The position numbers and the translations under genes are program-made. From assembly GCA_014435945.1 (NCBI GenBank), contig GCA_014435945.1_4088.1: a DNA stretch of 64,000 nt; one strand, 5' to 3'. The notes beneath the pieces were generated by a model. The model had not been told where the DNA came from, made no database searches, and worked only from the letters and a program-made list of their open reading frames with translations. This DNA is from a phage. Positions 7,928 to 13,590 of this stretch are shown here, piece by piece (positions within the stretch are counted from its first letter, which is position 1; the number at the start of each line of letters is the position of its first letter).

Positions 7928-8283
7928 GTGATTATGTGGCATTTCTTCATCGCTTTGGTGAAGCTCAAGAAAAACACATTATCCGTATGCCAGCTTATGG
8001 TGAAGAAGACTGGTACAAAAGTACTATCAGTGTAGGTGCATTTCGTGACCGTGAAGCTGAATTCTTTCTGGGTAAGCAACATGAACGAGAGGTACTTTGC
8101 TCACTTTGGCGTTTAGATGAATGGGATAGTGAAAATTCCAGAACGGCTGAATCAATGATGGCTATTGTTGGTATTGCGAACTATCAGCACCCATATGATC
8201 TATTACCTACATTTGAACATGCTTCTTTGTTTGACTTTTACAAAGCAGTAGGGTATGATTATAAAAAGAAACGTTACATTTAA
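7924..8283 (+). CDS. hypothetical protein
   Basis: ATG overlapping upstream stop; 119-aa ORF. Confidence 0.5.
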   Translation: MSDYVAFLHRFGEAQEKHIIRMPAYGEEDWYKSTISVGAFRDREAEFFLGKQHEREVLCSLWRLDEWDSENSRTAESMMAIVGIANYQHPYDLLPTFEHASLFDFYKAVGYDYKKKRYI

Positions 8284-8328
8284 TATCAGTACTGTTATAG
8301 TGGCAGTACTTTTTAATTGGAGATTACT

Positions 8329-8943
8329 ATGACTACATCTGAAAAGTACTGGTGGATTTTGGGCCATCCTAAATTCATCAACGGAGATATGGTTCCCCCA
8401 AGGATTGATATCGAACCACATGATGTGTGTCCAATCACAAACCGCATTGAATCATTTAAAGCTCTGAATACAAAGACACAATTTTGGGTAGAATTCATCT
8501 CACCTATGTACGTTGAGCAAGATGATGAATGGGTACAAGCACATGATTATGAGTTAGATTGCGGTGGTGATACTTATGATGAGGCAATTGATGAACTATA
8601 CAAAAATGTGCTAAACACTTATGGTGATTACACCCAACAAGAAGCAGACGATACGTTTAATAAGATCCATGCAGTCATTTCTACATCATCAATTTACAAT
8701 ACAGCAAAAACAGTTTGGGAAGAACGTCACGGGTGGAGTTCATCTGTAATTGATGCAGAAGCCAAAGAAACAATTCTCGAAGACATAAAAAATATAAAAA
8801 GTACAATAGAAGCCTTGCGTGAATTTATAAAGTCTTGTACAATAGAACAACAGAAAGAGGCAAAGATGCATTTGGAGAGTGAAGAATGTAAACTTTGGGT
8901 TCTAGAGAAATCATTTGAAAAGGGTATAGACTTAGACTTATGA
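8329..8943 (+). CDS. hypothetical protein
   Basis: ATG 6 nt after GGAG (ORF track gave TTG at 8317). Confidence 0.5.
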   Translation: MTTSEKYWWILGHPKFINGDMVPPRIDIEPHDVCPITNRIESFKALNTKTQFWVEFISPMYVEQDDEWVQAHDYELDCGGDTYDEAIDELYKNVLNTYGDYTQQEADDTFNKIHAVISTSSIYNTAKTVWEERHGWSSSVIDAEAKETILEDIKNIKSTIEALREFIKSCTIEQQKEAKMHLESEECKLWVLEKSFEKGIDLDL

Positions 8944-10125: not shown

Positions 10126-10536
10126 ATGTTAGCCGATGATTTTATGTCTCTAAGTATCAAGATATTTGATATATTAGGTGATGAAATAGATTTCCATCTA
10201 AATGATAAAACTATACCACACGAAGATGGTGGGTATTTTTTCGCATTTGGTAATAAGTTCAATGTTGATTTTTCAATTCCGGTTCCTGATGGAAGTGATT
10301 ATGCAGCATCAACATATTTTGAATTTCAGTTCAGTGGTCATACCGAGCGTTTACTAACATATAGACGTAAAGGAAATTTCAGTAGACCAGAGATTATATT
10401 AATGGATTTTGAAAAACGCATAGAACTTGCAAAGAATAATCCATTCATCAGTACTTATGCGTTAAACCAATTCATTGATCTATTTGATGGATATCCAGAC
10501 AGAATACGAGGGTCGTTACGTATAAATGCAGAATGA
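10126..10536 (+). CDS. hypothetical protein
   Basis: 136-aa ORF. Confidence 0.45.
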   Translation: MLADDFMSLSIKIFDILGDEIDFHLNDKTIPHEDGGYFFAFGNKFNVDFSIPVPDGSDYAASTYFEFQFSGHTERLLTYRRKGNFSRPEIILMDFEKRIELAKNNPFISTYALNQFIDLFDGYPDRIRGSLRINAE

Positions 10537-10711
10537 AATCTTTAAAAAAGAATACGATGGTGAAAGTCTATATGATATTCAGCGAGACGTACATGAAGCA
10601 TTCGATTCAAGATTTAACCCATTAGCTGGACAAATCCCACAAGATGAGTTTGGTTTCCAAGAAGGCACATTTACAGTGACTATTACATGGAGTCCAGATG
10701 AGACTAGCTAA
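10526..10711 (+). CDS. hypothetical protein
   Basis: 61-aa ORF overlapping upstream stop. Confidence 0.3.
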   Translation: MQNEIFKKEYDGESLYDIQRDVHEAFDSRFNPLAGQIPQDEFGFQEGTFTVTITWSPDETS

Positions 10712-10771
10712 ACTTGTAATCGGATGCAGTGCAATTGCTGCATATATGTTTTTTGCCGCTCCAACCAATGT

Positions 10772-10810
10772 AGTACTGCTAATTTGGGCAGTTTTTATAT
10801 TAGCAGTACT
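10772..10810. repeat. 12-bp perfect inverted repeat, each arm containing AGTACT
   Basis: AGTACTGCTAAT (10772-10783) and ATTAGCAGTACT (10799-10810) are exact reverse complements with a 15-nt spacer. Confidence 0.8.
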
Positions 10811-10813
10811 TTA

Positions 10814-10836
10814 AAGCACCCTAGTGGTGCTTTTTC
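10814..10836 (+). terminator. intrinsic terminator
   Basis: AAGCACC-ctagt-GGTGCTT hairpin followed by T-run. Confidence 0.65.
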
Positions 10837-10973
10837 TATTTGTACAAATATAAAGCAATGTGACCTTTCCTTGATATAGGTCAAGAGAAATACCCTGTTC
10901 TGACGCTATAATGGTGTCTGGTGATGTTAAATAACTTCACCCCCAGATGATTTCAAAATACAAGGAAAGTAAA

Positions 10974-12779
10974 ATGCAATTAGATAAATTATATACTGAC
11001 GTAACAAATTTCCTAAATCAGAGCAATACTGATCTTACAAATGAAAATGCAAACAAAGATGCGAAATGCGTCAATACACACAGGGATTTACTTGCTGGTA
11101 TCCTATCTAAGCATTATTCACAAGATGTTATTCCAAAGGAGCTAATGCAGTGGCATAATGATGGTTATGGTCACATTCATGATTTAGACTACTATATCAG
11201 CCCATTAACTAACTGTTGCTTGGTTAACTACCCAGATATGCTAAAAAATGGATTTACCATTGGTTGTGCCAAAATTGAAGAACCAAAGAGTTTTAGTGTA
11301 GCATGTACAGTACTGACACAAATTGTACAAGCTGTTGCTAGTTCCCAGTACGGTGGTCAATCGTTGGCTCATATCGACGTTGGTCTTGAACCTTACGTCC
11401 AAAAGTCGTGGGATAAGCTATTAGCGAAGCAAAAGGCATATAATCTCAGTACTGAATACATTGAGGAAGAATTACGAAAAGAAGTCTATGATGGGTGTCA
11501 AACCTTACTTTACCAGACAAATTCAATGATTAGTACAAACGGACAAGCAGCATTCATTTCTCTTAGTTTAGGACTGAATACTTCAAAATTTGGAAAATTA
11601 ATCACTGAACAGTACTTAAAAGTACATGAGAATGGTTTAGGCAAAGATAAGATTACTCCAGTGTTTCCTAAAGTAATTTTCTTTTTACAGGACGGAATCA
11701 ACATGAATAGCGATGATTGCAACTATGACATGAAACAGTTGGCAATGCGTTGTGCATCGAAGAGAATCTATCCAGACTTCGTTTCTGTACCGTTAAATCA
11801 CAAAGTGACAGGAAGTAGTAGCACAGCAGTAACTCCGATGGGTTGCCGTTCATTTTTAGGAAAATGGGAAGATTCCAATGGTAATGAGCAATACAACGGT
11901 CGTTTCAACTTAGGCGTGGTTTCCATCAATTTACCACTAATTGCTCTTGAAAGTGCATCAGATGGAGATTTTTTTGATAAAATAGACGAGCATATGAATA
12001 TTGCATATCGTGCTCAGATGAACCGTGTAGAGCGTTTAAAAGGCACAAAAGCGAAGCAGAATCCAATTTTGTTCATGGAAGGTGCACTTTCACGTTTAGG
12101 GGCTGAAGAAACGATTGACAAGCTATTTTATAACGGATATGCTAGTATTAGTATTGGTTACGTTGGTTTAGTTGAATGTTCAGAAATTCTGACTGGTTCT
12201 ATCAGTAAGGAGTTCTGCATGTCAGTTCTGAATTATATGAAAGTTAAATGCGATGAGTTCAAAAAAGAGAGTAACATAGCTTTTAGTCTATATGGAACCC
12301 CAGCAGAGTCACTTTGCTACAAATTTGCACGTTGCATCGAATCTAAGTATCCTTCAGTACTAAAACGTGATTACATCACAAATTCCTTCCACCAACCAGT
12401 ATGGGTAGCAAGTTCACCATTTGATAAGTGGAGTTACGAAGAGGGTTTTGCTTACCTCAGTAATGGTGGAAACATCAGTTATGTTGAATCACCCAACCTA
12501 AGTAACAATATTCAAGCACTTGAGACTTTAGTCAATTACGCTTACACAAAGATCCCATATTTTGGTATCAACCAGCCAATTGACCAGTGTTACGAGTGTG
12601 GGTATAAAGGTGAGTTCAGTGTGGATAAACACGGTTTTCATTGTCCAGTATGTGATAATCGCAATGAGAAGACAATCTCAGTGATTCGTCGTGTTTCTGG
12701 ATATTTGGGGAACCCATCGTCTCGTGGATTCAACAAAGGCAAACAACAAGAATGTTGTGAGCGTATACAACACAAATAA
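10974..12779 (+). CDS. nrdD: anaerobic ribonucleoside-triphosphate reductase (class III)
   Basis: C-terminal glycine-radical motif RRVSGYLG and CxxC..CxxC zinc ribbon; ATG after AAGGAAAG (ORF track started at 10947). Confidence 0.9.
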   Translation: MQLDKLYTDVTNFLNQSNTDLTNENANKDAKCVNTHRDLLAGILSKHYSQDVIPKELMQWHNDGYGHIHDLDYYISPLTNCCLVNYPDMLKNGFTIGCAKIEEPKSFSVACTVLTQIVQAVASSQYGGQSLAHIDVGLEPYVQKSWDKLLAKQKAYNLSTEYIEEELRKEVYDGCQTLLYQTNSMISTNGQAAFISLSLGLNTSKFGKLITEQYLKVHENGLGKDKITPVFPKVIFFLQDGINMNSDDCNYDMKQLAMRCASKRIYPDFVSVPLNHKVTGSSSTAVTPMGCRSFLGKWEDSNGNEQYNGRFNLGVVSINLPLIALESASDGDFFDKIDEHMNIAYRAQMNRVERLKGTKAKQNPILFMEGALSRLGAEETIDKLFYNGYASISIGYVGLVECSEILTGSISKEFCMSVLNYMKVKCDEFKKESNIAFSLYGTPAESLCYKFARCIESKYPSVLKRDYITNSFHQPVWVASSPFDKWSYEEGFAYLSNGGNISYVESPNLSNNIQALETLVNYAYTKIPYFGINQPIDQCYECGYKGEFSVDKHGFHCPVCDNRNEKTISVIRRVSGYLGNPSSRGFNKGKQQECCERIQHK

Positions 12780-13562: not shown

Positions 13563-13567
13563 ACACA

Positions 13568-13590
13568 AGCACCCAATGGGTGCTTTTTTA
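13568..13590 (+). terminator. intrinsic terminator
   Basis: AGCACCC-aat-GGGTGCT hairpin followed by TTTTTT; same stem family as the 10814 terminator. Confidence 0.7.

Follow-up and report, generated by a model that had tools for sequence, protein, structure and literature searches.

A perfect 12-bp inverted repeat beside the terminator upstream of nrdD in an Asteriusvirus phage: a probable coding-region hairpin

The genes and signals upstream of nrdD

The stretch of phage DNA analysed here (64,000 nucleotides from contig GCA_014435945.1_4088.1, hereafter the window) is Asteriusvirus DNA, from the 121Q/PBECO4/G17 group of Escherichia coli jumbo phages. A 1.3-kb query centred on the inverted repeat that concerns us matched 36 GenBank phage records, all of them from Asteriusvirus jumbo phages that infect Escherichia or Salmonella, at identities that range from 79% to 99.5%, with Ecwhy_1 and fEgEco12 as the top matches. 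Conservation was read from an alignment of 15 genomes, including distant ones at 74-78% identity, together with blastn comparisons over the 36 records. One of these, CMSTMSU, is an UNVERIFIED record, which shows homopolymer indels at the locus and a split nrdD that are probably sequencing errors.

On the plus strand, which carries all the features described below, the locus begins with a small hydrophobic open reading frame (ORF) of 38 amino acids (MRLAKLVIGCSAIAAYMFFAAPTNVVLLIWAVFILAVL; 10698-10814), which runs from an ATG at 10698 to a TAA stop codon at 10812-10814. A Shine-Dalgarno sequence (GGAG, 10689-10692) precedes the ORF, which overlaps the upstream ORF (10526-10711) by 14 nt. Five relatives annotate it as a coding sequence, namely G17 (as G17_00428), WPEC3, BF17, CRJP21 and Salmonella phage SD-2_S15, and a tblastn search found full-length matches to the 38-aa protein in 34 of the 36 genomes, with the lowest identity (52.6%) in JNE01 and Turkey5, and none outside Asteriusvirus. 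The exceptions are CMSTMSU and A4; in the latter, a 25-nt deletion leaves a protein of 19 aa, so the small protein appears to be dispensable in that phage. The other two frames across the ORF carry stops, and the differences of the main-clade genomes from the window fall at codon positions 1/2/3 in numbers from 5/0/4 to 5/0/7, with position 2 never changed, a pattern that points to a hydrophobic coding sequence under purifying selection. PHROGs offered no family for the 38-aa protein and assigned the two upstream ORFs to families of unknown function. With 30 of its 38 residues hydrophobic, the product of the gene that holds the repeat is predicted to be a small membrane protein.

The stop codon of this gene leads directly into a hairpin (10813-10833) made of the stem AAAGCACC/GGTGCTTT and the loop CTAGT, whose first two bases are the last two of the stop codon, and which is followed by a run of T residues at 10831-10835. 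The stem comprises 8 pairs (4 of them G-C) closed by a 5-nt loop, with a predicted energy of -9.6 kcal/mol, and the whole element (10813-10835) was detected by a terminator scan. All 8 pairs are invariant in 15 of 15 aligned genomes, including those at 74-78% identity, and the energy stays between -9.6 and -11.8 kcal/mol across all the genomes compared. Orthologous terminators are annotated in G17 (273720-273738, by ARNold) and in UE-S1 (214247-214268). The element shows the stem and loop, the U-tract past a stop codon and the positional conservation of Rho-independent terminators, and it is probably an active one. An IMG/VR scan anchored on this terminator, in search of divergent relatives, returned 121Q and unrelated phages that carry a generic AAGCACC/GGTGCTT terminator, and added no diversity to the comparison. 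A second terminator with the same core (AAGCACCC-AAT-GGGTGCTTTTTT, 13567-13589) follows the nrdG-like ORF, and the nrdD-nrdG block has a terminator with the stem core AAGCACC/GGTGCTT at either end. Since the unrelated IMG/VR phages also have terminators with similar stems, this is probably a generic strong stem and not a repeat family.

The downstream gene is identified in the records of the relatives as nrdD, which encodes the anaerobic ribonucleoside-triphosphate reductase. Its ORF spans 10947-12779, with a likely start at the ATG at 10974, preceded by a Shine-Dalgarno sequence (AAGGA, 10962-10966), as in the annotation of G17 and 121Q. The annotation of PBECO4 and UE-S1 gives the protein a long N-terminal extension from a start equivalent to 10911; an in-frame TAA at 10932-10934 closes this extension, which supports the start at 10974. 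The true intergenic DNA before nrdD is to be found at 10815-10973. It contains the palindrome CTTGA-TATAGG-TCAAG (10870-10885), a pattern unique in the window, whose TTGA and TCAA cores (10871-10884) are invariant in all 15 genomes and whose spacer is variable. A -10-like element, GCTATAAT (10905-10912), begins 19 nt past the palindrome and is unchanged in every one of the 15 genomes, even at 74-78% identity; it is a candidate for the nrdD promoter. RNA-seq of the related Pseudomonas jumbo phage PA5oct mapped transcription starts to TATAATA and TTGAC motifs and transcript stops to stem-loop terminators (PMC7318152), and these data support a layout where the terminator is followed by a promoter and then by nrdD. 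A different promoter class, described as "TGAAACG + -10", has been reported for CBB and GAP32 (PMC5259590); the pattern GAAAC-N12-20-TATAAT, taken to represent that class, has 0 matches in the window, and the -10-like element of nrdD was therefore not placed in it.

The inverted repeat and its history in the genus

Immediately before the terminator, AGTACTGCTAAT (10772-10783) and ATTAGCAGTACT (10799-10810) are exact reverse complements of each other, separated by a spacer of 15 nt, as the initial annotation had described. Each arm carries one AGTACT hexamer at its outer end. The adjoining terminator was also correctly seen, as its hairpin begins 2 nt after the right arm (3 nt if counted to the AAGCACC of that annotation). 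The label "intergenic", however, does not hold for this pair of sites: both arms lie inside the 38-aa ORF, within its last 14 codons, where the left arm encodes (V)VLLI and the right arm the C-terminal residues ILAVL.

Among perfect inverted repeats of at least 12 bp with spacers of 3-40 nt, this is the only one in the window. Chance alone gives 0.3 +/- 0.5 such repeats per window (maximum 2, in 30 dinucleotide shuffles), so that about one in 4 random windows would have such a repeat, and its presence alone carries little weight. Perfect repeats of at least 10 bp number 10 in the window, several of them obvious terminators, versus about 3.5 in the shuffles.

Folding of the transcript bears out the stem-loop that had been proposed as an alternative to protein-binding sites, with a 12-bp RNA stem predicted at -15.8 kcal/mol directly 5' of the terminator hairpin. 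The region 10755-10850 folds as two side-by-side hairpins at -25.8 kcal/mol (z = -2.65), an energy reached by 3 of 200 shuffles. When the sequence was recoded synonymously with the codon usage of the window (n=5000), a repeat of at least 10 bp arose in 0.06% of the recodings (P about 0.0006, a post hoc figure) and one of 12 bp in none, which means that codon choice matters and that the peptide does not force the repeat. The real last 60 nt of the ORF fold better than 98% of these recodings.

These numbers open the question of whether the hairpin could be a functional element of the mRNA, either as a tandem 3' stem-loop that, together with the terminator, shields the upstream transcript from 3' exonucleases, or as an element at which the RNA polymerase or the translating ribosome pauses when it nears the end of the small ORF, with read-through into nrdD modulated by the terminating ribosome. 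A stable 12-bp stem that stands 2 nt 5' of the terminator, with both hairpins present in the minimum free energy (MFE) fold, a stop codon (10812-10814) that overlaps the terminator stem, and a 10-11-bp version of the stem that is common to 13 of the 15 aligned genomes and improbable from the peptide alone, all speak in favour of such a role. It is known that stem-loops at the 3' ends of mRNAs, such as REP elements and terminator hairpins, act as barriers to 3' exonucleases, and the present hairpin resembles them in being a stable stem-loop that adjoins the 3'-terminal hairpin of a transcription unit. Unlike them, its 12-bp stem lies within an ORF, where it would be unwound by ribosomes, and it is confined to one lineage, without signs of selection. 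Neither the MFE nor the centroid structures contain an alternative, switch-type pairing with the terminator, since both hairpins coexist in them, and an Rfam scan of 10400-11200 (E <= 1) returned only mir-5366, a match at chance level that scored 18.5 bits (E = 0.56), below the gathering score of 73.

The comparison with other phages weighs further against an mRNA function. The exact 39-nt hairpin was recovered by blastn in 7 records, and near-exact forms occur in WPEC5 (one mismatch) and CMSTMSU (a 1-nt indel in the loop); in 24 records the match begins at position 3 only, without the left site, in JNE01 and Turkey5 it is confined to positions 11-39 of a diverged sequence, and A4, with its deletion, gives no match. 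The initial annotation had named a lack of conservation of the paired arrangement in related genomes, together with an absence of protein binding, as an outcome that would speak against its reading, and the arrangement is indeed unconserved, with the perfect pair found in 9 of the 36 records. Within the 15 aligned genomes, the left AGTACT is restricted to the subclade of the window (WPEC3, TH47 and CMSTMSU), as it depends on G10773; with T at this position, most relatives read ATTACT and carry a Leu codon (TTA) in place of the Val codon GTA. The left arm is ATTACTGCTAAT in the 121Q/G17/UE-S1 group and ATTACTGTTAAT in the PBECO4 group. The right AGTACT is retained in 14 of the 15 and lost in A4. 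The left arm of A4 is deleted, and that of JNE01 is unrelated, with 5 of 12 Watson-Crick pairs.

No compensatory changes were seen in the helix: none of the 12 pairs has changed on both sides, 5 pairs depart only by breaks (a comparison of low power, at mostly >=88% identity), and 7 of 10 distinct sequences lack the G-C pair on which the left AGTACT depends. Nor do the arms show extra constraint, with 2 of 24 columns variable in the main clade versus 13 of 93 in the rest of the ORF (Fisher p = 0.73), and 13 of 24 versus 46 of 93 once the distant genomes are included (p = 0.82). Because the genomes that carry the stem are all at least 88% identical, these comparisons have little power either way. 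The energy of the hairpin goes from -15.8 kcal/mol in the subclade of the window to -12.4 in the 121Q group, -10.0 in the PBECO4 group, -4.7 in JNE01 and -2.2 in A4, and the value for the PBECO4 group coincides with the mean of the synonymous recodings (-9.9 +/- 2.5). The three genomes that have lost the stem (JNE01, Turkey5 and A4) retain the terminator and the promoter-like region downstream, and nrdD has an invariant -10-like element of its own beyond the hairpin. A functional mRNA element is, in our judgement, unlikely at this place.

The same lack of conservation bears on the idea that the repeat acts as DNA, where an extruded cruciform or hairpin would serve in replication, recombination or nicking. 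No other perfect short-range inverted repeat in the window is as long; there is, against this, no local repeat family or composition feature around it, and a spacer of 15 nt disfavours cruciform extrusion. We give this reading hardly any credence.

AGTACT in RaK2-like jumbo phages

The hexamer at the outer ends of the two arms had been noted as enriched, and the enrichment proved to be a strong one. AGTACT is the commonest hexamer of the window, with 150 copies versus 20.4 +/- 3.9 in dinucleotide shuffles, at a density of about one per 430 bp and with flanks biased to CAGTACTG. Most copies (140 of the 150) are inside ORFs, and several of the other ten fall in partial ORFs at the end of the window. 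Synonymous shuffles that keep the proteins and the codon usage of each gene contain 36.4 +/- 5.3 intra-ORF copies, about 4-fold fewer than the 140 observed, and all three frames are used (63/46/21 on plus-strand genes). This excess over the synonymous shuffles indicates that the pressure for AGTACT operates at the nucleic-acid level.

A comparable excess, of about 7-fold, was found in 50-kb samples of PBECO4 (116 versus 16.8), JNE01 (138 versus 16.8), Klebsiella phage RaK2 (114 versus 16.6) and Cronobacter phage GAP32 (114 versus 16.8), with observed/expected (O/E) ratios of 6.8-8.2, whereas the hexamer is depleted in samples of the same length from PA5oct (0.18), T4 (0.23) and E. coli K-12 (0.26); all these statistics come from small samples of 50-64 kb per genome. 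AGTACT is about 27-fold denser in the RaK2-like phages than in the host sample. The sites of the window are also retained in relatives above the background of hexamers, at 65% versus 43.5% in PBECO4 and 63% versus 33% in JNE01. The enrichment is common to Asteriusvirus, Alcyoneusvirus and Mimasvirus, that is, to the RaK2-like enterobacterial jumbo phages, and it is independent of coding.

Several simple accounts of this abundance were considered and discarded. A repair drive of the Vsr type does not fit, as the pair of words that deamination would link to AGTACT, AATACT/AGTATT, is not depleted (O/E 1.07) and GGTACT/AGTACC is 2.7-fold enriched, and a regular spacing of the sites is not seen either, with a coefficient of variation of the gaps of 0.8-0.98, near that of an exponential distribution. 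A resemblance of CAGTACTG to half-sites of LexA (CTG-N10-CAG) or TrpR (GTACT) was considered as well. The likeness was rejected, as these half-sites occur in inverted order, and the CTG-CAG spacing is N23 in the pair at 10772 and N9 in the pair at 8288 (N10 only in G17), neither fixed nor conserved. The searchable literature contained no report of this enrichment and none that ties AGTACT or ScaI to these phages, and the term "SCAI" in the RaK2 paper refers to a culture medium.

We put forward, as a tentative reading that is slightly less likely than not, that AGTACT, in its best form CAGTACTG, could be a genome-wide and coding-independent mark of "self", of which the two sites of the repeat are instances. 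It would be read by a putative dimeric protein of the phage, for example one that methylates the DNA, spares it from nucleases, or takes part in recombination or packaging, with the 12-bp hairpin as a by-product. The nearest analogue is the HIP1 sequence of cyanobacteria (GCGATCGC; PMC5861425), itself unexplained, which is also a short palindrome, many-fold over-represented, independent of coding and retained across related genomes. The two differ in that AGTACT is a 6-8-mer of phages with an excess of about 7-fold, and HIP1 belongs to a bacterial phylum and reaches 15-300-fold. Chi is functionally comparable as an over-represented word that marks self, but Chi is asymmetric and AGTACT is palindromic. 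Beside the excess of AGTACT, many palindromic hexamers that contain G+C are absent from the window (among them CCATGG, CAGCTG, CTCGAG, CGATCG, AGCGCT, AGGCCT and ACCGGT, each with 0 copies versus about 6.8 expected from composition), which looks like restriction-site avoidance.

Paired copies of the hexamer had been taken in the initial annotation as possible operators or protein-binding sites, and the two sites of the repeat could be conceived as a double operator through which an AGTACT-binding dimeric protein controls either nrdD or the upstream operon. The strong selection of this palindrome at the nucleic-acid level and its positional retention make some reader protein plausible, and the centres of the two sites lie 33 bp apart, which is roughly three turns of the helix. 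A search for recurrent pairs nevertheless came out negative: gaps of up to 40 nt between AGTACT copies number 9 in the window versus 13.5 expected (Poisson), gaps of up to 20 nt number 2 versus 6.9, and over 264 kb of five genomes (the window, PBECO4, JNE01, RaK2 and GAP32) there are 46 close pairs versus 57.9 expected. The spacings of the close pairs vary from 17 to 40 nt; in the window, the 10772/10805 pair alone extends inward by more than 3 bases, and no other pair with extended arms was found in the five genomes. Moreover, the two sites are located in a coding sequence, 97-135 nt upstream of the conserved -10-like element and on the far side of the terminator, no part of the repeat was scored as a sigma-70-like site, and the left site is missing from 27 of the 36 records. 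A word that appears once per about 430 bp, mostly inside genes, cannot be a gene-specific operator. The position in a coding sequence, the small share of records with the pair, the lack of covariation and of extra constraint and the intragenic bulk of AGTACT leave the operator and protein-binding reading without support, and we regard it as very improbable; the elements at 10870-10912 seem better candidates for an operator and a -10 box than the 12-bp repeat.

The second close pair of sites that had been mentioned does exist, at 8288-8293 and 8305-8310, one base upstream of the start first given for it (8289). These sites form a hairpin, AGTACTGTT-ATAG-TGGCAGTACT, which together with a run of T residues (TTTTT) covers 8288-8314 and resembles a terminator. 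It follows a stop codon (8281-8283) and precedes the next gene (Shine-Dalgarno sequence at 8319-8322, ATG at 8329), and its orthologue in G17 is an annotated ARNold terminator (276246-276267; -9.9). The hairpin has a different loop and inner stem in G17 and PBECO4 and is absent from ph0011, UE-S1, A4 and JNE01, among which UE-S1 keeps one mutated arm. The loop (TGTTATAGT) scored 9/12 as a promoter, a reading that was dropped in view of the different loop of G17 (CATCGT) and of the four relatives that lack the entire hairpin. What the two sites form is thus a terminator-like stem that varies within the genus, and no conserved operator. Both this hairpin (8288-8310) and the one at 10813-10833 are orthologous to predicted terminators listed in Asteriusvirus annotations (ARNold predictions in G17, and UE-S1), unlike the 12-bp repeat, which lies upstream, in coding sequence, and is part of no annotated feature.

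A coding-region hairpin as the likely explanation

The explanation that we favour, and consider probable, is that the 12-bp repeat is an unremarkable hairpin of coding sequence that adjoins a known terminator and serves no dedicated function. The locus consists of the 3' end of a conserved gene for a small hydrophobic protein, followed by the terminator that would close the upstream transcription unit before the promoter region of nrdD. The repeat is built from the codons of two hydrophobic stretches, VVLLI and ILAVL, whose imperfect complementarity of 10-11 bp presumably pre-existed in the genus, and its perfect form is a state specific to one lineage. With the direction of the substitutions taken from JNE01 as outgroup and from the majority state, the repeat could have been completed in the subclade of the window when T was replaced by G at 10773 (Leu to Val), which created the left AGTACT. 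A synonymous T-to-C substitution, present in the 121Q group as well, may also have contributed to the perfect pairing. The gain of a new AGTACT would fit the genome-wide pressure that keeps this palindrome at its high density. A stem-loop next to the terminator can form in the mRNA; it would most likely be incidental and neutral.

A counter-point to the by-product view is that the real sequence folds better than 98% of the recodings and 197 of 200 shuffles. That both substitutions of the window's lineage raised the pairing can be put down to ascertainment, since the repeat was picked for being perfect in this very genome.

The repeat itself matters little for the biology of these phages, and the real content of the region, a small coding sequence and a terminator, is already annotated in relatives. 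The 12-bp hairpin offers no handle on the control of nrdD, which is better sought in the TTGA-N6-TCAA palindrome and GCTATAAT. The behaviour of AGTACT, now quantified, is a useful by-product of the analysis of the repeat and merits a follow-up of its own. If the word were indeed a mark of "self", the recent left site at 10772, gained at the cost of replacing Leu by Val, would be the sign of a pressure that still operates.
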